Below, piece by piece: positions 12,736-54,428 of a stretch of DNA of 64,000 bases. The notes beneath the pieces were generated by a model. That model was not told the DNA's origin and ran no database searches. It was given only the letters and a program-made list of their open reading frames with translations. The stretch's first letter is position 1; each line of letters begins with the position of its first letter. Both the position numbers and the translations under genes were made by a program. The stretch comes from Escherichia coli (lineage in GTDB: Bacteria; Pseudomonadota; Gammaproteobacteria; Enterobacterales; Enterobacteriaceae). The stretch is taken from NCBI RefSeq assembly GCF_003991155.1, contig NZ_CP031293.1. One strand, 5' to 3'.

Positions 12736-13386
12736 ATGGTCCAGAACATCATGTCAGCTTACCTAAAAAAAGCGTTATCGATTCATAGTGATGAATTTCG
12801 CCCATACGGAAACGTAATTTCTGCAATAAATGTAGATTCATTGCTTAAATACCTTAAAGAGGAAATTTCTGTACCTGAGGATCAGGTGGCATATGTCAGA
12901 AGCGATGAGCGCTTAAAGCAATACCCCGCCGTGAGCGACATTCAGCGCCAAATCTACGGTGGAATGCCCGTTCAGGCTGGGTACGTTTGTGGGGTAAATA
13001 CCACCCAGGATGGCTTTGAATATCACCAGGGAAGTGAAGTCATTATCGCCGCCAGCGATTTTTTCCTGTTTTTAGGTAAACGAGAGTTGATGCAGGGTGA
13101 CACGTTTAATGGTGAACGTGCAGAGCCGTTTTTCATTCCGGCAAAATCGGTGATTGAACTTTATAGCACAACGCTACATTACTGCCCTATGAGTATCAAT
13201 GCACAACCTTTTAGTGCAGCGATTATTCTTCTTGATGGAACTAATGAAGATATTGATGGCAAGAATAAACCAACAATATTAAGCAAGCGAAATACCTGGT
13301 TTATCGCCCATGAAAGTTTCACTGAGCATCCTTGCCCATTATTAAAAGGGCCGCATCTTTGCGTGAATGATATTATTCATGGGTGA
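12736..13386 (+). CDS. Cupin-like protein of unknown function (ureidoglycolate-lyase-like N-terminal motif; possibly DUF4867-type)
   Basis: 216-aa ORF with no K-12 counterpart at this locus; AT-rich codon usage; motif EFRPYGNVI resembles the AllA-family N-terminus; alternative start at MSAYLKK (12751). Confidence 0.6.
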   Translation: MVQNIMSAYLKKALSIHSDEFRPYGNVISAINVDSLLKYLKEEISVPEDQVAYVRSDERLKQYPAVSDIQRQIYGGMPVQAGYVCGVNTTQDGFEYHQGSEVIIAASDFFLFLGKRELMQGDTFNGERAEPFFIPAKSVIELYSTTLHYCPMSINAQPFSAAIILLDGTNEDIDGKNKPTILSKRNTWFIAHESFTEHPCPLLKGPHLCVNDIIHG

Positions 13387-13390
13387 AAAT

Positions 13391-13410
13391 GGCGAAGATT
13401 TCTCTTCGCC
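13391..13410. terminator. Shared hairpin between convergent island genes
   Basis: GGCGAAGA-TTTC-TCTTCGCC perfect stem-loop in the 30-bp gap between the cupin-like gene stop (13386) and the hydrolase-like gene stop (13417). Confidence 0.5.
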
Positions 13411-13416
13411 TGTTCT

Positions 13417-16071
13417 TTACCCGGCAATTACCGCCACGCTGTCTTTTGTTCGCACGCGTGGTGGCATGGTCAGACCGCAGCGATCCCACTCATTCCCCTG
13501 CCATGCACTCGCAAAATAATAATGATTCGCTGCCGATGGGTAGACCACGACCGCCAGTTCATTACGCTTTTTTAGTAAAGACTGTGGCAAGGTGAAACGA
13601 TATTCCGGCCAGCCCTTTTCGGCAATTAACGTATCGTTAAGCCAGATAGCAACGCTTCCCTGCACTTGCGGTAAATAAAGCTCAATATCGTCGGTAATCG
13701 TCTCCAGCGCAAAGCGTAACTGATAATGTCCCGGACCACACCACGTCTCCATCCCCTGCTGCTCCCACCCTTTTGTTACCTCAACGGGTCGGGAAACGTT
13801 ATCAACCAGCAGTTGCCAGTGCTTATCCAGCACCACCTCGTGGCGACTTTCCACTACCTGCAATGAAAAGCAACGGGCCTGCCAGGGCTCGATTTGTAGC
13901 GGATAACTTCCCGTGAGATGCTCTTCCAGCACTGAAACCTCTCCCGTTGCAAGATGCCACTCCGACAACTGCCCACTGAGGCCCGGAAAATGTAGCCAGC
14001 CGTAGAGCGGGGTATCTCCGTCGTTAAATACGCTGACGTAACGCGATGTTTCATCCTGGGTAATTCGCGTCCAGACGGCAGTTTTCCGGGAGGGATAGTC
14101 AACAAAGGGGTGATCGTTTTTCAGCGTGTCGGCTAACGTGCTGCACTGCGGTTGCGCCTCAATCAGTTTTTGCAGCCTTTCGGTGAGAGAACGATCTTCA
14201 CCTTTTTCCTCGCTATATGCCGCAAGCTCGCCGGCGATCAGAAGCTGGCCACCAGCGGCGACAAAGTGCTCCAGTTGGCTCAGCGTGGCGGCTGATTTCA
14301 CCACCTTAACGTCCGCTAACAGAAGCGCAGGGAAATTCATGCCGTTAATGCGCGTTCCATCAGCCTGGAGCAAATTCTCTTCATCAATAAAGAAATATTC
14401 AAATCCCTGAGCGCTGAGTTGTTTTGCCCAATATTCGCCTGACTGCCCTTCGTTGCCATCCACGCCACAGTGCCAGAAAGTCCGTTTGGGATAGAGTACG
14501 CCAACATCAACGTACGGCTCTCCCTGCTCAAGAAATTCGGCAAGGCGACCAGATTCCTGAGCAAACCCAGCGTGGAAGGCGTACCAGGGCTGGAAGTTAA
14601 CGCCCGGCGCAAAATCAAAACGCGGGTTACTTAATACGTCGTCATTTGCCTCGCCATCCGTCAGCCAGAACGCGTGCATCAAAAATTGCCGCGCACCGAG
14701 GAGGTGATGGCGCAATGCCTGCAACCGGATGTCATGCAGTGAAATTTCCCACTGCCCGGCAGCAAAATGTGTGCATGGCTTCACCCGCGCATAATATTGC
14801 TCAACAATGCACCCTTTACGCCCATGAGCGCGCGCCACAGAGTCGCCAACCTTCGCCGCCATCTGCGGCTCGCTATTTCGCGAATCGACAGCCGTAATAT
14901 CCCGCCAGCCATCGAGAGCAAAGTAATCCATAGCAAAATTACACCGGTTATCTTCGGTGATGATTTTACTGGCGAAATTCCAGCTACTAACGTGACCTAA
15001 TACTTCATGACCACTTAGCTGTATTCCCCGCTGGTGCGCCCATTCTGACAACGTACCAAAAAAGGCCTGCATCGCCTGGCTGGAATAACAGGAAAGCAGC
15101 TCACAGCGCCGACGTGCGGTACGACTGCCAATGTCCATAACTAACGACATCAGGTTTTCTGCCAGGCAGTAAGGTGCCTGTTGCAATGCATCAACAAACC
15201 TTTTTTCATACATTAAGGAGGATTTGACCGCGCCAGTATGTTCATTCCATTGCCAGAAACAGGCGTGTGGCTGGTCGAAAAAGAGATACGCCACCGTCTT
15301 ACCAAAATGATCGCCAAAAGCGCGGGCGTAAGGTTCATAGCCGACACGAATAAAATTTTCTGCCGCTTCGGGCATCAGGTAATTAATCATCCGTGAGGTC
15401 AAGCAACGCGCCGCGGCAAAGAGCGTCACTACCGTTTCCGCACCCCAGGGCAGGTCGCTTCCCGTAAAGGTGACCTCAAATTCCTCTGTGGTTGCTTTGG
15501 TGATGCGGGCCAATGAAGAAACATCAACAATTTCATCTGCATTGCACTCCCCTGATGAAGAGGTGGCATACGCTGCGACAATTTCCCATTCATCCCACGC
15601 CGGTTTACCGCCAGCAAAAATCCACTCCATTCCACACTGCTGTAGCGCCTGCGCATCCGCAGAGCGGATCCCGGAAAGGTGACATGTCAGTACATCTGCA
15701 GACCGGCTGGACTGGCTCCAGAAAAGATGGCGCTCACGCAGCTCATCTCTCCCTTCAACGGTCCTTCCCCCGGCGTGCCCGGAAAGCCAGTTGTAATCAT
15801 CGTAGATGCCCATCATCAGCCCAATATTGGCAGCTTTATCAGCCGTGTAGCGACAGGCTGCCAGCCACTCCTCACTGAGATAACTCTCCAGCGGAAGACT
15901 CAGACGTGCGGCTATCTGAAATGAACCATACCCTCCCGCCTGCAGTTGCCTCAGTTGGCTGTCGATCTGCTTTTTGTCCGGAATGGTATGCCAGAACCAG
16001 TAGGTTGCAGGCAGGTGCCATACATCAGGATTTTTAAAGTTTTGGCGTGCCTGTGCTAACGAATCATTCAT
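13417..16071 (-). CDS. Large cytoplasmic hydrolase-like protein (putative glycoside hydrolase, family unassigned)
   Basis: Track ORF 13417..16104; start chosen at MNDSLAQARQ (ATG at 16071) because of the AGGGGGAAAGCC RBS 6 nt upstream; 884 aa; no signal peptide; C-terminal region looks beta-sandwich/carbohydrate-binding-like; no K-12 homolog recalled. Confidence 0.75.
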   Translation of the reverse strand: MNDSLAQARQNFKNPDVWHLPATYWFWHTIPDKKQIDSQLRQLQAGGYGSFQIAARLSLPLESYLSEEWLAACRYTADKAANIGLMMGIYDDYNWLSGHAGGRTVEGRDELRERHLFWSQSSRSADVLTCHLSGIRSADAQALQQCGMEWIFAGGKPAWDEWEIVAAYATSSSGECNADEIVDVSSLARITKATTEEFEVTFTGSDLPWGAETVVTLFAAARCLTSRMINYLMPEAAENFIRVGYEPYARAFGDHFGKTVAYLFFDQPHACFWQWNEHTGAVKSSLMYEKRFVDALQQAPYCLAENLMSLVMDIGSRTARRRCELLSCYSSQAMQAFFGTLSEWAHQRGIQLSGHEVLGHVSSWNFASKIITEDNRCNFAMDYFALDGWRDITAVDSRNSEPQMAAKVGDSVARAHGRKGCIVEQYYARVKPCTHFAAGQWEISLHDIRLQALRHHLLGARQFLMHAFWLTDGEANDDVLSNPRFDFAPGVNFQPWYAFHAGFAQESGRLAEFLEQGEPYVDVGVLYPKRTFWHCGVDGNEGQSGEYWAKQLSAQGFEYFFIDEENLLQADGTRINGMNFPALLLADVKVVKSAATLSQLEHFVAAGGQLLIAGELAAYSEEKGEDRSLTERLQKLIEAQPQCSTLADTLKNDHPFVDYPSRKTAVWTRITQDETSRYVSVFNDGDTPLYGWLHFPGLSGQLSEWHLATGEVSVLEEHLTGSYPLQIEPWQARCFSLQVVESRHEVVLDKHWQLLVDNVSRPVEVTKGWEQQGMETWCGPGHYQLRFALETITDDIELYLPQVQGSVAIWLNDTLIAEKGWPEYRFTLPQSLLKKRNELAVVVYPSAANHYYFASAWQGNEWDRCGLTMPPRVRTKDSVAVIAG

Positions 16072-17563
16072 GGCTTTCCCCCTTCTTAATCGGCGGAACA
16101 TCACAATGACAAATGTATGTCAAAATGGCATACAGCGCCGCGCCCACCAGCATCGCCACCACTACGCCAATATTTGCTGTCGCAAACACGCTGGTTTTGG
16201 TTTCTGCCGTCAGTAAGAAGCCGACCAGGTGAGCAATCCACGGATCGCCTGAGGTGATGGTTCCCATGCCGATAACCGATGCAACAAACAGCGATAATAA
16301 TGCCGTCCAGCGACCGTTACGCCCGCCAAGCCCCGCGGGCTGCGCCATATCAGTGTTCCAGTGCAAGCGTTTTTGCCGGGCAAAGTCGACAAGCTGGATT
16401 GCGCCCATCGATCCCAATACGACGGATACCGTTGCCAGAAAAGACTGAAAGGTTGCGAGGAACGAGTCAGAAACAAACAATAAGTAGAAGGCACCGAATG
16501 CGATAATGACCGCATTGATAGCAGTGGTGGTTGAACGACTGGCTGGAACGCCCATTGCCAGCAATGCGAGGCCTGAGCTGTAAACACCTGTAATGGCTGC
16601 CGCCAGCAGGGAGATGATGATCACGATTGAAAACGGCACATAGAACCAAAACGGCAGGAACGAGGTTAAGGCCGCAATCGGTTCGGACGCTGCTGCTCCG
16701 CTCAGTTCCGGGTTACTGTCGGCCAGCAGGGCACCTAAAATCAGCAGGATGGAAACCGGAAGCGAAATCCCAAGCGACGTCCAGAAAATCACTTTCCCGG
16801 CAGCGGTTTTGCGCGGCAGGTAACGGGCGAAATCACCGCCATAGTTGAGAAAGCCCAGCCCAACCATCGTCATTGCCATCACCATGCCGCCGATAAACGT
16901 TAAAAATCCGGCATCGGGAGCAGCACCCGCCTGCGACCAGTGAATATGTGGCAGGATCAGGATAATAAAGATGATGCTCATTCCGCCCGTTAACCATGCA
17001 ATATACTTTTCTACCTTCATGATGAGCTGGTGGCCGTAGATGGCAACGGACATAGTCAATACTAAGGTCACCACGAACCAGCCCAACAGGCACCCTAAGG
17101 TAGGGTGACCGTTTTCTGCTGCAAATACGGTTGGCCATAACCGGGCAAAGAGGGCGGCGCCAGTGGTCGAGGACAACGTAATAATGGTGATTTTCCAGCC
17201 CATATTGGAAATATAGGCAAATAAAGTGGGGATCTTATTCCCATGATAACCAAAGGCAAATCGGGTCTGCGTTAAGGTAGGCAGCCCGGTGCGTGGCCCA
17301 CCAACGGCCAGAACCCCCACCAGCGTGCTGGATAAAAAATAGCCCACGACACCGGCAACAATCGCCTGCCAGAGGCTTAACCCCAGTGAGTAAACATAAA
17401 TCCCATAGGTAATACCGAGGATGGATACATTCCATGAAAACCAGATCGGGAAAAGTCCGGCAGGCGAACCATAACGTTCGTTATCACTAACCGGGTTTAC
17501 CCCATTGGTTTCCACCTTCATCGTACCTGAAACATCAGATGGGTTCTGGGCTTGGCTCGTCAT
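16064..17563 (-). CDS. NCS1-family (nucleobase/nucleoside/vitamin:cation symporter) permease
   Basis: Start set at MTSQAQNPSD after a GAGAGGAAAT RBS within the longer track ORF; about 499 aa, highly hydrophobic with multiple predicted TM helices; resembles purine-cytosine/allantoin/hydantoin permeases. Confidence 0.8.
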   Translation of the reverse strand: MTSQAQNPSDVSGTMKVETNGVNPVSDNERYGSPAGLFPIWFSWNVSILGITYGIYVYSLGLSLWQAIVAGVVGYFLSSTLVGVLAVGGPRTGLPTLTQTRFAFGYHGNKIPTLFAYISNMGWKITIITLSSTTGAALFARLWPTVFAAENGHPTLGCLLGWFVVTLVLTMSVAIYGHQLIMKVEKYIAWLTGGMSIIFIILILPHIHWSQAGAAPDAGFLTFIGGMVMAMTMVGLGFLNYGGDFARYLPRKTAAGKVIFWTSLGISLPVSILLILGALLADSNPELSGAAASEPIAALTSFLPFWFYVPFSIVIIISLLAAAITGVYSSGLALLAMGVPASRSTTTAINAVIIAFGAFYLLFVSDSFLATFQSFLATVSVVLGSMGAIQLVDFARQKRLHWNTDMAQPAGLGGRNGRWTALLSLFVASVIGMGTITSGDPWIAHLVGFLLTAETKTSVFATANIGVVVAMLVGAALYAILTYICHCDVPPIKKGESHE

Positions 17564-17564
17564 T

Positions 17565-18782
17565 TTATTTCCTCTCATATTGAGCAAGACGTGATAGTAC
17601 GGCTTCATACTCAGGCATGTTCGATGCGCCTTCCCGCTCGACCGCCAGAGAAGCAAACGCAGAGGCAAATTTTGCTGCACTGAGCAACGGCTGGCCCTGC
17701 GCAATCGCCGCAGCAAACGCACCGTTAAACGCATCCCCCGCACCGGTGGTGTCAATACTTACTGCTTTTAACGCTGGAATATGGGTAAATTGTTCACCGT
17801 CATAAATCAGCGCCCCTTGAGAACCCATCGTAATAATGATGTTTTTTGCCCCCAGGGATTTTATGGTTTGCGCCGCTTCTTTCGCACTCTCGATATCATT
17901 AATCTCGACACCGGACATCAGCGACGCTTCTGTTTCATTCGGTGTCAGATAATCAACATATTGCAGGCATTCTTTTGCCTGGTCAGAATAAGGGGCTGGG
18001 TTAAGGATAGTTTTCACGCCCGACCGATGTGCCATATTTAGTGCCAGCGTGGTTGCTTCAAAGTTATTTTCCAACTGTGTCAAAAATATTTTGGCGTCCG
18101 TCAACTCACCCGCAATACTGGCAACTTCCGCTTCAGTGATATATTGATTGGCGCCAGAATAAATCGCGATCTTGTTTTCACCAGCAGGCTCCGAAACATA
18201 TATTATGGCGCTTCCTGTTTTATGCTCTTCGTCCTGGTAGAGGGTAAAGCTGCGGATATCGGATGAAGAGAGATGATCATGCGCCATCTGGCCGAAATGG
18301 TCGTTGCCAACTTTGCCGACGAAGTGTACCTGGACGGGACATTTGCTGGCTGCCATCGCCTGGTTTGCGCCCTTGCCGCCAGGTCCAATGATGGTATTGC
18401 TGGCAAGAATTGATTCGCCGCTTTTAGGGAAGCGATCAACTTTGGCAATAATATCGACATTAAAAGATCCTAATATACAAACTTTGCTTATCATTATTTT
18501 CCCTTTTTTGTTTGTCATCGAGTTTTTTCGCCAGTTGACCTGATTGAGGAACTTTTCAATAGAGGTACCAACGTTATTAACGGGCTGAGAATGGAAAATC
18601 CGACGCAATATTATTGCTCCGCCGTGACAACGCTCAACACCCCCTTGCTCCGCTAATAAATTTAAATCATTACGGATCGTTTCTTTACTGACAGAGAATA
18701 AGATGGCGAGTTGATTAACCGTAGCCCGCTCATGTTTATTCAAATATGCCAATATTTGACGTTGTCTTTCTTTCCCAAACAT
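17565..18782 (-). CDS. DeoR-type HTH domain fused to a ribokinase/PfkB-family carbohydrate kinase domain
   Basis: 405-aa ORF; N-terminal about 60 aa ERQRQILAYLNKHERATVNQLAILFSVSKETIRNDLNLLAEQGGVERCHGGAI is a DeoR-family HTH; C-terminal about 305 aa carries PfkB motifs GPGGKGANQA and DTTGAGDAFNGAF; GAGGTG RBS; stop 1 nt before the permease ATG. Confidence 0.8.
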   Translation of the reverse strand: MFGKERQRQILAYLNKHERATVNQLAILFSVSKETIRNDLNLLAEQGGVERCHGGAIILRRIFHSQPVNNVGTSIEKFLNQVNWRKNSMTNKKGKIMISKVCILGSFNVDIIAKVDRFPKSGESILASNTIIGPGGKGANQAMAASKCPVQVHFVGKVGNDHFGQMAHDHLSSSDIRSFTLYQDEEHKTGSAIIYVSEPAGENKIAIYSGANQYITEAEVASIAGELTDAKIFLTQLENNFEATTLALNMAHRSGVKTILNPAPYSDQAKECLQYVDYLTPNETEASLMSGVEINDIESAKEAAQTIKSLGAKNIIITMGSQGALIYDGEQFTHIPALKAVSIDTTGAGDAFNGAFAAAIAQGQPLLSAAKFASAFASLAVEREGASNMPEYEAVLSRLAQYERK

Positions 18783-46471: not shown

Positions 46472-47118
46472 TACTCGTCCTTCACATTTCCCGGAATAAT
46501 TGCGGTTTTCTCTTGTTCACGGCGATACCAGTAATAAGCCCCTTTCGAAATCATTCGCAGTTGCAGTACCAGTCGCTCTTCTAATTGCCGACGTTGTTCG
46601 ACGCCGACGTCCAACGCCTCAGCACCCGCACTGAAGACAATTGTCACCATTGCTTCGGCTTGCGCTTCAGTAAACGCACGCGGCATATGGTTTTCGAGTT
46701 CCAGATAGTCCGCAAGTTCCGCAATGAAGTGCTGAATTTCACGCGCAACGGCGGCACGAAACGCAGCGGAGGTACCGGAGCGTTCCCGCAATAATAACCG
46801 GAAGGCGTTAGGATTATTACCGATGAACTCCATAAATGTGGAGACCGAGGTGCGGATCACACTCCCGCCTTTGGCGATACGCTGACGCGCCTGGCGCATG
46901 AGTTGGCGTAGCATTAAACCGCTCTCATCAACCATGGTCAGACCCAGTTCGTCTACGTCGCGGAAATGCCGATAAAAAGAGGTGGGAGCAATGCCCGCTT
47001 CACGCGCCACTTCACGCAAACTCAGGCTGGCGAAGCTGCGTTCAGCACTTAATTGGCTAAATGCGGCTTCCACCAGCGAACGGCGGGTTTTTTCTTTTTG
47101 TTGCGCTCTTACGCCCAT
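46471..47118 (-). CDS. fabR: TetR-family repressor of unsaturated fatty acid biosynthesis FabR
   Basis: Track ORF of 247 aa; start set at [20 protein letters not shown] (215 aa); start could be further upstream at MFILWYS. Confidence 0.9.
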
Positions 47119-47452
47119 CACGATGTCTGAATCCTTGCCAAAAGTACTGCTGGCACTATACCAGAGAATGAACATACTGGATTGCTCCAGTGTTGTGAAT
47201 GAACGGTAACGCAATAAAACATATTTACTGCAATTCTTTGGCCGGTTCTTTTACGTACAACGGAAACCTGCCGCTTAAACGGAGAGTATCGTCGATAAAA
47301 ATCCAATAAAACGTTCAGGTCAAAAGTAAGAAACAGACAAAGCAAAGGCCGCTCACGCTATAGCCAGATAAATGACGGGGATCAATTGGCTTACCCGCGA
47401 TAAAATGTTACCATTCTGTTGCTTTTATGTATAAGAACAGGTAAGCCCTACC

Positions 47453-49848: not shown

Positions 49849-49958
49849 GAAACGGAGCGGCACCTCTTTTAACCCTTGAAGTCACTGCCCGTTTCGAGAG
49901 TTTCTCAACTCGAATAACTAAAGCCAACGTGAACTTTTGCGGATCTCCAGGATCCGCT
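49849..49958 (+). ncRNA. oxyS: OxyS small regulatory RNA
   Basis: GAAACGGAGCGGCACCUCUUUUAACCCUUGAAGUCACUGCCCGUUUCGAGAGUUUCUCAACUCGAAUAACUAAAGCCAACGUGAACUUUUGCGGAUCUCCAGGAUCCGC plus a U-run; divergent from oxyR. Confidence 0.93.
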
Positions 49959-50004
49959 TTTTTTTATTCTACAGGCCCACAGCAAGAGAGCCTGATAGTA
50001 ACAG

Positions 50005-51288
50005 TTACTCAATCCGATCTTTGACAATAAAGAAGTAACACAGCGCCCCGGTGAACGTCACACAGGCCGCGATAACCAGCGCCAGATTAAACGAGTGCGT
50101 GGTATCCACTACCCAACCGGTTACGATCGGAGCAAAGGAAGCAAAAACAAAACTGCCAAAGTTTTGAATCCCGGCGATGGAAGCCACTTTTGTTTCTGAC
50201 ACCATCACCTGCACCAGTCCCCATGCAGATGTTCCCGCGAAATGCACGCAGAACAGCGCCATTGAGATAAACGCTACAGCCTGGGCTGGCGAGGAGGATT
50301 GCACGACCAGCAACGTGCCTAATGCCGACATCATCAAACCGCAGACAATAGCCGTTTTACGCGTCTTCGCCAGGTCGTAGCCTTTTTTCGCCAGCCGATC
50401 GACAACAATACCGTTAACCCACATCCCGACCGCCGCCGCGAGGAAAGGAATCGCCGCCACCCAACCGGTTTTCGCCAGACTGAAGCCTTGCTCGGCTTGT
50501 AAATAACCGGGTAACCACGCGATGTAGAGCCAACCGGTATAATTGACGCCAGAGAAACCTAAAATCATCCCCCAGGTTGTCCGATGCTTAAACAGCGCCA
50601 GCCACTCGCTAAATTGTAATTGTGGACGCGGTTTAACCGGCGCGGAGAGATAGGTCCGTTCTTCGTCGGTCAGGACAAACTGCGCCCGGTTGCGATACCA
50701 CGCGTACCAACAGATCCCAACCAGAATCCCCGCCACGCCGATGATGACGAACATTGCCCGCCAGCCCCATGCCAGCTGCATCAATACAAGAGCAGGAGGC
50801 GCAATAGCCTGACCGATAACGGTAGATGAGTTAAAAATCCCCAGCGCCGTGCCGCGTTCTTTTTGCGCATACCAGTCGGTGATCGACTTTACTCCCGCAG
50901 GCATAAATGGCGCTTCGCCAATACCCAGACCGATACGCATTAAAATAAAGTGGCTAAAAGAATTAACCATTCCTGTTAATGCCTGCATTAATGACCAGAA
51001 TATTAAGCCTGCGCCTAAAACTATTCGTGGGCCAAAGCGGTCTAGCAAAATACCGGAAGGGAGTTGTGAAAAACCATAAGACAGAGAAAATGCAGAAAGC
51101 AAAACGCCAAATTCTGTCGCCGATAATCCTAACTCGCCACGAATCGCTTCGCCTGCCACGCTCAATGACGAACGGTCGAGGAAATTAACGATCCCCGCCA
51201 TAAATAATAAAACCAGCGTTACTGTCTGAATACGACGAATCCGTTGCGGTTTATTACCCGCAACACTGGTTGACACATCAACGTCCAT
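50005..51288 (-). CDS. MFS transporter, anion:cation symporter type (sugar-acid permease-like)
   Basis: 427-aa hydrophobic ORF; N-terminal LFMAGIVNFLDRSSLSVAGEAI and 12-TM organisation typical of hexuronate/glucarate/galactonate permeases; no K-12 gene at this position. Confidence 0.8.
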   Translation of the reverse strand: MDVDVSTSVAGNKPQRIRRIQTVTLVLLFMAGIVNFLDRSSLSVAGEAIRGELGLSATEFGVLLSAFSLSYGFSQLPSGILLDRFGPRIVLGAGLIFWSLMQALTGMVNSFSHFILMRIGLGIGEAPFMPAGVKSITDWYAQKERGTALGIFNSSTVIGQAIAPPALVLMQLAWGWRAMFVIIGVAGILVGICWYAWYRNRAQFVLTDEERTYLSAPVKPRPQLQFSEWLALFKHRTTWGMILGFSGVNYTGWLYIAWLPGYLQAEQGFSLAKTGWVAAIPFLAAAVGMWVNGIVVDRLAKKGYDLAKTRKTAIVCGLMMSALGTLLVVQSSSPAQAVAFISMALFCVHFAGTSAWGLVQVMVSETKVASIAGIQNFGSFVFASFAPIVTGWVVDTTHSFNLALVIAACVTFTGALCYFFIVKDRIE

Positions 51289-51354
51289 TTTTAGCTCCTT
51301 GAGCGGAATTAATCGATTTGATGACTATTCAGAAAATAATTAAGCGAACTGTTA

Positions 51355-52569
51355 TTACCAGTTCCACAATGTGCCATCTTCCAGTCGTGCGACGGGGAGA
51401 TACGCCGGGTCATACGGATATTTCGCCGCCAGTTTCTCATCGAAAGAAATACCCAGCCCCGGTTCATCGCCTGGGTGCATATAACCTTCATCGAAGCGCC
51501 AGCTATGCGGGAAGACTTCAAGCATTTGTTCGGAATAGCCCATGTACTCCTGAACGCCAAAGTTTGGCACCCAGAGGTCAAAATGCAGCGCCGCCGCATG
51601 ACAAACAGGCGATAAATCTGAAGGACCATGCGAACCGGTACGTACCTGATAAAGCGATGCAAAATCGGCAATCCGTCGCATCCCGGTAATGCCGCCTGCA
51701 TGGGTAATCGTCGTGCGAATATAGTCAATCAGCTGCTCTTCGATTAACTGCTTGCAGTCCCAGATACTGTTAAACACTTCACCGACCGCAATCGGCGTCA
51801 CAGTATGCTGGCGAATCAGACGAAAACATTCCTGGTTCTCAGCAGGCGTCGGATCTTCCATCCAGAACAGGCGGTAATCCTCAATGCTCTTCCCAAAGCG
51901 CGCCGCTTCGATAGGAGTCAGGCGATGGTGCATGTCATGCAACAGATGTTCGTTAAAACCGAACTTATTACGCACCGCTTCAAATAACTTCGGTGTAAAA
52001 TCGAGATACTTTTCTGAAGACCACAACTGCTCTTCCGGCCACAGGCCTTTGGTTGCCGGTTCATACGCCAGTCCTTTGCCCTTCGCCAGGCCATAAGTGG
52101 TTTGCATACCCGGTACACCGCACTGCACACGAATCGCCTTAAAGCCCATCTGCTGGTGCTTTGCATAGTCTTCAAGGACTTCATCAATCGTGCGCCCGGT
52201 GGTGTGGCAATAAACCATCACGCCTTCACGAGAAGCACCACCAAGCAGTTGATACAATGGCATATTTGCCGCTTTGGCTTTGATATCCCACAACGCCATA
52301 TCAATGGCAGAAATGGCCGACATCGTGACGGGGCCACGTCGCCAGTAAGCACCTTTATAAAAGAATTGCCAGATATCTTCGATACGGCTGGCATCGCGGC
52401 CAATTAATTGTGGACAAAGATGATCTTTCAGATAAGAAGCGACCGACAATTCGCGACCATTTAATGTGGCATCTCCCAATCCACAAAGTCCGCTTGCAGT
52501 GGTTATTTTAAGCGTAACGAAATTACGTCCTGGGCAAGTAACAAAAACATCTGCAGCAATAATTTTCAT
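51355..52569 (-). CDS. Enolase-superfamily dehydratase, RspA/D-mannonate dehydratase (ManD) subgroup-like
   Basis: Start set at [24 protein letters not shown] (404 aa) after an AGGAGATTGCAATA RBS within the 424-aa track ORF; strongly RspA-like along its length. Confidence 0.85.
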
Positions 52570-53054
52570 TATTGCAATCTCCTGTGTTGTAAATAGACGC
52601 TTCAAACTTAATTTTACGCCTACTACCATACAAGAGAGAAAGAGCGATTATTCAACCGTGATCACATTAAAAATAAAAATTTCCGCCGAGGAGAAAAAAC
52701 ACCCTCAAAAACCACCTGAATAATTAACCATCATCTTTAAAACAACACGTTAAATAATCACATAACAAACTCCATTAATCATTAAAAATGAGCACAGCAA
52801 TAGAAATTAATTATATTCAATTAATTAAAATATGTATTGATTGATGTATTGAAAATATGATTTTCATGGGGAGAGTGAAGGTAAAGAAGATGCAAGAATA
52901 AAAAGGAATATGACAAATAATAGTTCTGGTTGGGCGTTAAATTTAAGGTCACCAGAATGCTGACAAATTTCTGCCTGAGGCAGTCCGCCTACGTAGTGTC
53001 GCTACTTTATAGGCGTGGTAAGCTCCCCATTTTCAGGGGAGCAATATAAACCAA

Positions 53055-54428
53055 TTACTCTAACCGAGCCTGCGCAAAAGCAATCGCCTGCGCCACCTGC
53101 TGCGGTGAGACGCCGCCTTTTGCCGCACGCTTGTCGAGGCACGATTGTAGCGACAGAATCGGATAGACATCTTCGCCAATCACCTGGCTGAATTTCTGCA
53201 ACTCACTGAGCGGCAGATCTTCCAGCGGTTTGCCCTGACGAATGGCTTCCACCACCGCTTCACCCACAATATGGTGCGCCTCGCGGAACGGTACGCCTTT
53301 CGCCACCAGGTAATCCGCCAGTTCAGTGGCGTTGGCGTAACCCTGCTGAGCCGCTTCCTGGCAACGCGGACGTTTCACCTGAATGCCATCCAGCACCAGC
53401 GCCGCCATATGCAGGCAGTCCAGCCAGGTATCGAGCGCGTCGAACAGACCTTCTTTGTCTTCCTGCATATCTTTGTTGTAAGCCAGCGGCAAACCTTTCA
53501 GCGTCATCATCATGCCGGTTAACGCACCCTGCACCCGGCCGCATTTACCGCGAATCAGCTCCAGCGCATCCGGGTTTTTCTTCTGCGGCATTAATGATGA
53601 ACCGGAAGTCACACGGTCAGAAAGCTCCACAAACCCCGCTTCGCCGGTGTTAAAGAAAATCAGATCTTCAGCAAAACGCGACAGATGCACCATGCCGATA
53701 GCGGCAGCAGAAAGCAGTTCCAGCACGTGGTCACGGTCAGAAACGCTGTCGAGACTGTTACGGGTCGCTGAAGCAAAGCCCAGCCAGCCAGCTAACTGTT
53801 CACGGTCGATTTCATAAGCCGTTCCCGCCAGCGCGCCACAGCCTAACGGACTGACATCCAGACGCTTAAGCGCATCCTGCAAGCGGCTTTCATCACGCGC
53901 CAGCATCTCCACGTAAGCCAGGCACCAGTGCGCGAACGTCACCGGTTGAGCACGTTGCAGGTGGGTGTAACCTGGCATTACCGCGTCCTGATTGTTCTGC
54001 GCGGTCTCGACCAGAGCGGATTGTAACTGCCGGTTAGCCGTCAGCAACTCGCTAACGGTATCTTTGCACCACAGTTTCAGGTCAGTCGCTACCTGATCAT
54101 TACGGCTACGCCCGGTATGCAGCTTTTTGCCTAACTGACCCACTTTGTCGATCAGTTTGCTTTCCACCCAGCTATGGATATCTTCGGCGTCGCTTTCAAG
54201 GATTTGTTGTGGCCTGGCGCGAACATCTTCCAGCAGCACGTTCAGCGCCTCTTCCAGTTGCGCCTGCTCTTCTGCGGTTAACACGCCGACCGTTACCAGG
54301 GCTTTGGACCAGGCCACAGAGCCAACAATATCCTGCTCCGCCAGACGGTAATCAAAGCGCAGTGAGTCGTTGAATTGTTTGAACCGTTGATCTGCTGCCT
54401 GGGTAAAACGCCCGCCCCAAAGTGCCAT
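53055..54428 (-). CDS. argH: Argininosuccinate lyase
   Basis: 457-aa [40 protein letters not shown]. Confidence 0.98.

Follow-up and report, generated by a model that had tools for sequence, protein, structure and literature searches.

A candidate sugar-acid uptake operon between argH and oxyS of Escherichia coli and its relation to the enterobacterial rsp cluster

The slot between argH and oxyS was analysed in a 64-kb stretch of Escherichia coli DNA (contig NZ_CP031293.1), referred to below as the window, which is 100% identical to E. coli CREC-544 across this region. The gene order is sthA (plus strand), oxyR (minus), OxyS (plus), two open reading frames (ORFs) on the minus strand, and then argH, argB and argC (minus). 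RefSeq names the two ORFs of CREC-544 “MFS transporter” (major facilitator superfamily) and “manD: D-mannonate dehydratase ManD”. In the alignment with K-12 strain ER2796, collinearity holds up to position 49965, the end of the T-run of the OxyS terminator, and is restored at 53055, with the stop codon of argH. Between these points lie 3,089 bp (49966-53054) in the window, compared to 54 bp in K-12, the latter including the K-12 argH terminator. A first-pass annotation of this DNA had described oxyS and argH as adjacent in K-12, with about 3.1 kb of extra sequence here (49959-53054) that encodes a two-gene minus-strand operon of an RspA/ManD-like dehydratase followed by an anion:cation-symporter-type MFS permease. 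The gene calls proved right, the coordinates are correct within 7 bp, and K-12-type genomes do lack the segment. The 54 bp of K-12 show no similarity to the segment above shuffled controls, which argues against a deletion scar; neither allele is simply derived from the other.

The two ORFs are separated by a gap of 66 bp, and each is preceded by a strong Shine-Dalgarno sequence. A terminator scan yielded a single terminator-like pattern at the gap (51364-51346), which overlaps the end of the dehydratase gene and has a weak stem; such patterns are no commoner in this region than in shuffled sequence. Given the short gap, the lack of a convincing terminator within it and the two strong Shine-Dalgarno sequences, the arrangement is consistent with a single operon.

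The dehydratase comprises 404 residues from a start at MKII, which is also the RefSeq start; the alternative start (52629) of a 424-residue ORF falls within the promoter core described below. The protein matches the NCBIfam ManD equivalog model NF043051 over its full length with 731.5 bits (cut-off 550) and model NF011654 with 806 bits (cut-off 430). In comparison with solved structures, it is 91% identical to RspA of E. coli CFT073 (PDB 4IL2) over all 404 residues, with no gaps (898.7 bits), and scores 893.5 bits against PDB 4E4F, named mannonate dehydratase by its depositors, the next structures following at about 637 bits. Residues R147, Y159, D212, H214, E238, E264, H314 and E341 of 4IL2 are all retained. 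Among these, we take the Arg147/Tyr159 dyad to be the catalytic base, His214 the acid, and Asp212, Glu238 and Glu264 the Mg2+ ligands, roles that reportedly go back to the work of Rakus and colleagues in 2007, in which the NaManD numbering is said to be two lower. Five of the 36 substitutions that distinguish the enzyme from RspA fall in the 150-180 loop region. Since the profile scores exceed the curated cut-offs and the catalytic set is kept, the dehydratase is assigned to the ManD subgroup of the enolase superfamily, and its predicted activity is most likely the dehydration of D-mannonate.

In a neighbour-joining tree, the argH-slot dehydratase forms a branch of its own with 100% bootstrap support, which is not sister to E. 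coli RspA; its identity to the latter is 91%, compared to 92-94% for the RspA proteins of other genera. The synonymous divergence (dS) between the dehydratase gene and E. coli rspA is saturated, at about 1.8-2.1. The saturated dS and the fully supported separate branch identify the enzyme, on this evidence, as an old paralog of RspA and not as a recent duplicate. An RspA ortholog was ruled out on the same grounds and by its site at argH/oxyS instead of ynfA-rspA-rspB. The first-pass annotation had held that its reading would be refuted if the dehydratase clustered with an already characterised ortholog of known substrate. This is in part the case, as the enzyme groups tightly with CFT073 RspA (91%, 899 bits to 4IL2) and with 4E4F, and the gene already bears the NCBI name manD. 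RspA and the window enzyme share identical catalytic and metal-binding residues and a promoter architecture that is alike and in register; they differ in setting, as RspA is encoded at ynfA/rspB with the RspB dehydrogenase next to it, and the window paralog at argH/oxyS with an MFS transporter as its neighbour.

The closest solved relative of this transporter is the D-galactonate:H+ symporter DgoT (PDB 6E9N; E=4e-57, 197 bits, residues 13-424 aligned). The equivalents of DgoT D46, R47, Y79, R126, E133 and N393 are conserved, with D38, R39 and E125 of the permease corresponding to D46, R47 and E133. In DgoT, D46 and E133 serve in proton coupling, and R47 and Y79 in binding of the carboxylate (PMC6532931; residue roles also in PMC11649914 and PMC10149257). 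The permease differs from DgoT at Y44F, Q164T, Q264F and S370G, so that three of the four residues that contact the galactonate hydroxyls (Q164, Q264, S370 and N393) are replaced, by T, F and G, respectively. Its best NCBIfam model, the D-galactonate transporter model TIGR00893, gives 275 bits, below the cut-off of 395; on the basis of this score and the altered hydroxyl contacts, orthology to DgoT was ruled out. The permease thus shares with DgoT (PDB 6E9N/6E9O) the family, the fold class and the residues D46, E133, R47, Y79, R126 and N393, whereas the sequences are only distantly similar, and the partner enzyme of DgoT is DgoD rather than a ManD-type dehydratase. By these comparisons the permease belongs to the anion:cation symporter (ACS) or SLC17-type family of DgoT. 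Because the coupling and carboxylate-binding residues are kept, the hydroxyl contacts are changed and the score lies under the cut-off, we consider it an acid-sugar:H+ symporter with a cargo other than D-galactonate, probably a hexonate such as D-mannonate.

The relatives of the permease were sought with the MFS as the query against one genome per species; for annotation of the 21 loci thus obtained, ORF clustering was combined with NCBIfam. In Klebsiella, Raoultella, Enterobacter, Citrobacter, Pluralibacter, Lelliottia, Siccibacter and Atlantibacter, an ortholog (82-89% identical) lies within the rsp locus. The MFS gene directly adjoins rspA, in either order, in 12 of the 14 non-Escherichia enterobacterial loci (about ten genera); the two exceptions are Atlantibacter, where it lies four genes downstream of rspA, and Shimwellia, where no rspA was found nearby. 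The cluster runs from ynfC, speG, ynfB and ynfA through MFS/rspA, rspB (PRK10083 equivalog), a YdfJ-like MHS transporter and a fructuronate reductase (PRK15037, YdfI-like), sometimes with uxaC and a GPH transporter, to a divergent GntR regulator and ydfG. This regulator is the ortholog of rspR and finds E. coli rspR at 75% nucleotide identity. The E. coli rsp locus itself consists of ynfA-rspA-rspB, usually a prophage, and then ydfJ-ydfI-ydfZ-rspR-ydfG, and no ACS-type MFS gene occurs there. From this absence, the rsp-cluster transporter appears in Escherichia only at argH/oxyS, together with an rspA copy of its own. We therefore regard the module as a relocated “rspA + transporter” piece of the enterobacterial rsp cluster. 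The cluster has the MFS ortholog next to rspA and the same promoter blocks as the module, and in Lelliottia, Siccibacter and Enterobacter sp. kpr-6 also the same rspA>MFS order; the module differs in that it contains the first two genes only, whereas the dehydrogenases and the regulator stay at the E. coli rsp locus, 2 Mb away.

Upstream of the dehydratase gene, roughly the last 110 bp can be aligned, in register, to the rspA promoter of E. coli and to the rsp promoters of other genera. The shared architecture is TGTGATC-N25-CTTGTATGGTAGTAG, with the block CTTGTATGGTAG(TAG) located 64 bp from the ATG in the window and 65 bp at rspA. This architecture has one match in the window and none in 100 shuffles, and CTTGTATGGTAGTAG by itself also occurs only once in the 64 kb. 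The first 12 bases of CTTGTATGGTAGTAG are shared upstream of every rsp operon examined, the spacing between the conserved block and the ATG is matched at E. coli rspA and at 11 other loci, and the promoter blocks are invariant across all Escherichia alleles examined. A sigma-70 consensus scan detected no promoter upstream of the operon; the promoter is assigned by its homology to that of rspA, which has been mapped. In K-12, rspAB is repressed by RspR (YdfH), whose footprint on the rspA promoter spans 31 bp around a central ATACnnGTAT, and genomic SELEX found this single RspR target (Shimada et al., PMC8249747). The block CTTGTATGGTAG beside the RspR-box is identical in rspA and in all rsp operons examined; like the window, the MFS-first operons among these have no ATAC. 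The window operon is thus probably controlled in trans by RspR and also by cAMP-CRP, like rspAB; the assignment of TGTGATC as a CRP site is drawn from the TGTGA consensus.

The ATAC half of the box was found only in rspA-first operons at the rsp locus. The MFS-first rsp operons have (A/C/G)TTC at this position, and the argH-slot copies CTCT or AATC (window 52635-52640); the conserved promoter element proper is CTTGTATGGTAG. The ATAC half may not be essential for RspR, since it is absent from MFS-first rsp operons that adjoin their own rspR.

Of the 5,426 complete E. coli genomes in our collection, 5,417 have rspR and 4,964 have rspB, i.e., the regulator is more widely retained than its only known target. 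The full-length match to rspB is restricted to 4,880 of the genomes, and the gene is interrupted by IS1 in some. The first-pass annotation had remarked that a cognate regulator and a downstream pathway enzyme are missing. This is correct within the segment; it does not extend to the genome as a whole, given the rspA-type promoter, the near-universal rspR in trans, the widespread rspB and the position of the transporter inside the rsp cluster in other genera.

We scored as carriers those genomes in which at least 80% of the segment was covered. There are 1,860 of them (34%), among them IAI1, B7A, 536, ATCC 25922 (“Seattle 1946”) and CFT073; the segment is always chromosomal, with no plasmid copies among the carriers, and is absent from K-12 and from O157/O145-type genomes. 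E. whittamii and Escherichia sp. E1V33 and MOD1-EC7003 carry the module in the identical slot. For every Escherichia lineage pair tested, the dS of the module matches that of the flanking argH and oxyR, amounting to about 0.1 within E. coli and to 0.15-0.37 in comparison with E1V33 and E. whittamii, and the dN/dS of both genes is 0.01-0.04 across E. coli phylogroups, E1V33 and E. whittamii. The coding GC content is normal (about 50-55%), and only the promoter region is AT-rich. In the segment, we detected no insertion sequence (IS), transposase, integrase, tRNA, terminal or flanking repeats, and no extra RNA families. A mobile genomic island was ruled out on these grounds, i.e., the absence of mobility genes and repeats, the normal coding GC and the agreement of dS with the flanks. 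For the same reasons, the “accessory insertion” of the first-pass annotation is misleading. As dS equals that of the flanks, the slot is shared across Escherichia and mobility signatures are lacking, we read the module as an old presence/absence polymorphism of Escherichia that is under purifying selection where present and has disappeared from, or been replaced in, many lineages. For K-12-type genomes, which lack it, loss is no less likely an explanation than an ancestral absence, and an acquisition that predates the divergence of the Escherichia lineages is possible. The module appears better described as an old, maintained piece of the rsp cluster that has been relocated and has an rspA-type promoter than as an orphan accessory insertion.

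Decay of the module is nevertheless evident in places. In strain 4973, an in-frame deletion of 276 bp shortens the MFS protein to 335 residues (L028 640-1647; also in DSM 101139 and OZ501657), and genomes of this type are 99.7-99.8% identical to the window across the segment: transporter loss is ongoing in the window's own lineage. IS1 and ISKpn26 insertions disrupt the module in some other carriers. In Citrobacter sp. R56, the argH-oxyR slot (L020 7600-7880) contains an intact MFS gene (92% amino acid identity), and CTTGTATGGTAGTAG is kept.

The clearest indication of the substrate comes from a sister MFS subfamily (about 68-70% identical). In Rouxiella badensis, Pectobacterium zantedeschiae, Leminorella grimontii and Providencia stuartii, its members form a unit in which a GntR regulator faces an MFS>UxuA gene pair, UxuA being the classical mannonate dehydratase, unrelated in fold to ManD. 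These units have the compact design of transporter plus mannonate dehydratase in common with the module; they differ from it in that the enzyme is UxuA (PF03786) and not ManD, and the regulator is their own and adjacent. The RspR-type block is absent from them, and they use a different, TGGCCTGACCA-like operator. In Celerinatantimonas, the MFS homolog is accompanied by a GntR regulator with no adjacent dehydratase. Because the transporter lineage pairs with either of two unrelated mannonate dehydratases, and with no other enzyme in the minimal units, D-mannonate itself is, on the simplest interpretation, the cargo and 2-keto-3-deoxy-D-gluconate (KDG) the product.

Taken together, we consider it somewhat more probable than otherwise that the segment is a self-contained operon by which a hexonic acid, most likely D-mannonate, is taken up and put through the first step of its catabolism. 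The MFS permease, as a proton-coupled organic-anion symporter, would import the acid, and the ManD-subgroup dehydratase would convert D-mannonate to KDG. The core enzymes KdgK and Eda, by which KDG is processed in every E. coli, would then yield pyruvate and glyceraldehyde 3-phosphate. The operon would be driven by its copy of the rspA promoter, with repression by RspR in trans and dependence on cAMP-CRP, as for rspAB. The uptake-plus-dehydration module feeding KDG that the first-pass annotation had suggested is still, to our judgement, the best functional reading. A precedent is provided by Haemophilus influenzae, which uses D-mannonate and L-gulonate as carbon sources via the same chemistry (PMC5788505). 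Its pathway (GulD, UxuB, UxuA, KdgK, KdgA and a TRAP transporter) leads from mannonate through KDG to Entner-Doudoroff intermediates, as proposed for the module; it differs in employing a TRAP transporter and UxuA, in being encoded at one locus and in having been verified experimentally.

Several observations weigh against D-mannonate uptake and dehydration under rsp control. The RspR-box region of the window reads CTCTTTGTAT, in which the right half GTAT is kept and the left half ATAC is replaced by CTCT, so that binding of RspR to this promoter may be weak or absent. The module is dispensable, as two thirds of the E. coli genomes (66%) do without it. Of 53 carriers sampled at even spacing, 49 have an uninterrupted, full-length module, and the other four contain an IS insertion or a deletion; in Citrobacter sp. 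R56, the dehydratase is reduced to a remnant of the first 32 and last 33 codons. The more distant MFS homologs, at or below 56% identity (51-56%, from metagenomes), have no sugar-acid genes in their neighbourhoods. Wichelecki and colleagues (2014) reportedly described RspA-type ManDs as “low-efficiency”, with kcat/KM values of about 10-100 M-1 s-1, and are said to have been unable to demonstrate a physiological role for them where UxuA is also present. The strain of that study was reportedly CFT073, which carries the module. Our literature search found no experiment on this gene pair, and for the CFT073 genes c4920/c4921 it returned nothing relevant (c4919 is ArgH).

The cargo may be another compound. 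The permease could import L-gulonate or a different hexonate (L-idonate or D-gluconate), which RspB and YdfI/UxuB would convert via D-fructuronate to D-mannonate before the local dehydratase acts; the module would then supply the transporter that is lacking in the “cryptic” L-gulonate pathway of E. coli. We regard this as unlikely, even though the MFS genes of other genera cluster with the RspB equivalog and a fructuronate reductase, the E. coli rsp locus has rspA, rspB, ydfJ and ydfI and no ACS-type MFS, and the hydroxyl-binding residues differ from those of DgoT, so that homology does not fix the cargo. The route from L-gulonate through fructuronate and mannonate to KDG is moreover established in H. 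influenzae (PMC5788505). Direct import of D-mannonate is in better agreement with the GntR-MFS-UxuA units, which contain no dehydrogenase; the YdfJ-like second transporter of the rsp clusters, located next to rspB and the reductase, could itself carry L-gulonate. CFT073, furthermore, possesses the module, yet its L-gulonate pathway is said to be cryptic. A further possibility is that the operon is an idle relic, silenced or too inefficient to matter and merely not yet lost. Its absence from 66% of the genomes, the MFS deletion of strain 4973, the IS1 and ISKpn26 insertions and the Citrobacter sp. R56 remnant would all suit such a state, as would the reported low efficiency of RspA-type enzymes and the AT-rich upstream region, a type of DNA that is often bound by H-NS and may be so here. 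A dN/dS of 0.01-0.04 at a dS of 0.1-0.37 nevertheless signifies long-term purifying selection on both genes, and with 49 of the 53 sampled carriers uninterrupted and the promoter blocks invariant in the Escherichia alleles examined, we think a relic quite improbable.

The remaining two explanations are weaker still. The patchy distribution in E. coli, the K-12 allele that shares no sequence with the segment, the 10.3-kb sugar island which the same slot accepts in ECSC054-type strains (see below) and a dehydratase that is not sister to E. coli RspA might suggest a recent, horizontally acquired accessory island. Its recency is already largely refuted by the dS, equal to that of argH/oxyR in every Escherichia pair tested, and by the identical slot in E. 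whittamii, MOD1-EC7003 and E1V33; together with the lack of integrase, IS, tRNA, terminal repeats and plasmid copies and the ordinary coding GC of about 50-55%, this makes such an origin very improbable. To a role in signalling, in which the dehydratase would degrade a homoserine-lactone-type starvation signal moved by the MFS protein, we attach hardly any credence. The name of RspA goes back to the lowered RpoS-dependent expression in stationary phase that follows overproduction of the protein (Huisman and Kolter 1994, cited in PMC8249747 and PMC13034041). The fold, catalytic residues and family are however those of an acid-sugar dehydratase, and the transporter has the residues for binding an acid-sugar carboxylate; deletion and overexpression of rspAB were without transcriptional effect in a recent study (PMC13034041).

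If the preferred reading, i.e., uptake and dehydration of D-mannonate, holds, a substrate would be assigned to an MFS subfamily that is widespread in Enterobacterales and so far without assigned cargo. The “low-efficiency” RspA-type dehydratases of the enolase superfamily would gain a physiological setting in a real pathway. For RspR, a “single-target” regulator in K-12, many natural isolates would provide a second target, among them two uropathogens (CFT073 and 536) and a commensal (IAI1). A more far-reaching proposal, which we consider doubtful, is that the rsp system of Escherichia has its missing entry point in the module, whose permease would be the first identified MFS carrier for D-mannonate (or L-gulonate). 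RspR would then govern an additional, unlinked operon in roughly one third of E. coli strains, and the “cryptic”, low-efficiency ManD pathway would work only where the transporter is present; this would explain why enzyme-only studies found no phenotype. The practical interest is modest, namely a strain-specific sugar-acid trait for metabolic models of the E. coli pan-genome. The module is already annotated by homology in thousands of genomes, its genes belong to well-known families, and it is a fairly ordinary metabolic accessory and no new kind of system. The points worth testing are the substrate of the transporter, a possible second RspR target, and whether the transporter makes the “cryptic” rsp pathway usable.

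The features of the segment and its boundaries are listed in Table 1.

Table 1. Features of the argH-oxyS slot, in positions of the 64-kb window
Feature	Position	Strand	Basis and remarks
OxyS sRNA gene	49849-49958	+	Rfam RF00035, 139.5 bits, full length; left boundary marker, outside the module
Variable segment, 3,089 bp	49966-53054	.	K-12 junction alignment
MFS permease, 427 aa	50005-51288	-	ORF; DgoT/SLC17 (anion:cation symporter) type
Shine-Dalgarno AAGGAG of the MFS gene	51295-51300	-	Direct sequence reading; in the 66-bp gap
ManD-subgroup dehydratase, 404 aa, RspA paralog	51355-52569	-	NCBIfam, PDB comparison
Shine-Dalgarno AGGAG, 9 nt before the ManD ATG	52579-52583	-	Direct sequence reading
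Conserved block CTTGTATGGTAGTAG	52620-52634	-	Same in rsp promoters; overlaps right half of RspR-box (GTAT) and putative -35
TGTGATC, CRP-like half-site	52660-52666	-	Fixed spacing N25 upstream of conserved block
AT-rich operon upstream region, ~32-36% GC	52635-53054	-	Composition profile; comparison with other alleles
Hairpin GCTCCCC-N7-GGGGAGC, just past the argH stop	53022-53042	-	Direct reading; occupies the place of a different K-12 argH terminator
argH	53055-54428	-	ORF and RefSeq annotation; right boundary marker, outside the module

The hairpin behind argH was missed by the terminator scan because it has no T-run. At the other end, behind the MFS stop codon (window 49925-50010, minus strand), there is no intrinsic terminator with a U-run; strong hairpins are limited to a 5'-proximal stem and the terminator of OxyS read backwards, the latter followed by AAAAGU. 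Transcripts of the operon could therefore continue through oxyS in antisense and enter oxyR in its sense orientation. K-12 has a proper argH terminator in this place. Neither an Rfam match nor a credible small ORF was found in the 420-bp upstream region, where a degenerate REP-like element lies near 52975-53000. The corresponding palindrome is GGCGGATAAGGCGTTTACGCCGCATCAGGC in 536, IAI1 and E1V33, and the window version, situated between the argH hairpin and the operon upstream region, is 12 bp shorter and degenerate.

The slot receives other DNA as well. E. coli strains of the ECSC054 type carry an extra island of 10.3 kb between the manD promoter and argH (L029 5698-15963), which takes the place of about the last 280 bp of the upstream region found in the window and codes for an FGGY kinase, an L-ribulose-5-phosphate 3-epimerase, a sugar ABC transporter interrupted by IS5, a DeoR regulator and an AraD-like epimerase. 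With this further sugar island in the same place, the argH-oxyS slot is an integration hot spot.

Among the rsp loci of other genera, one contig (L010, CACSKA010000003.1) is labelled Chryseobacterium sp. 18061 and displays the full enterobacterial ynf/rsp synteny, in a gene order nearly identical to that of Citrobacter sp. 18056 from the same project; the assembly is probably mislabelled or contaminated. A separate indel is located nearby, in the gap between sthA and fabR (window about 46800-47452). The window has none of the M20 aminoacylase and MFS (“citrate-proton symporter”) pair that occupies this position in CFT073, E. whittamii and two Escherichia sp. genomes (L030 25896-28421; L005 12166-14691). 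This indel is independent of the manD-MFS module, all four combinations of presence and absence being found in public genomes. Finally, some 6 kb between rpoC and thiH (window about 12751-18782) encode ribokinase-like, purine-cytosine permease family, 884-residue hypothetical and DUF4867 proteins according to the CREC-544 annotation, and are probably what the first-pass annotation had counted as the first accessory insertion.

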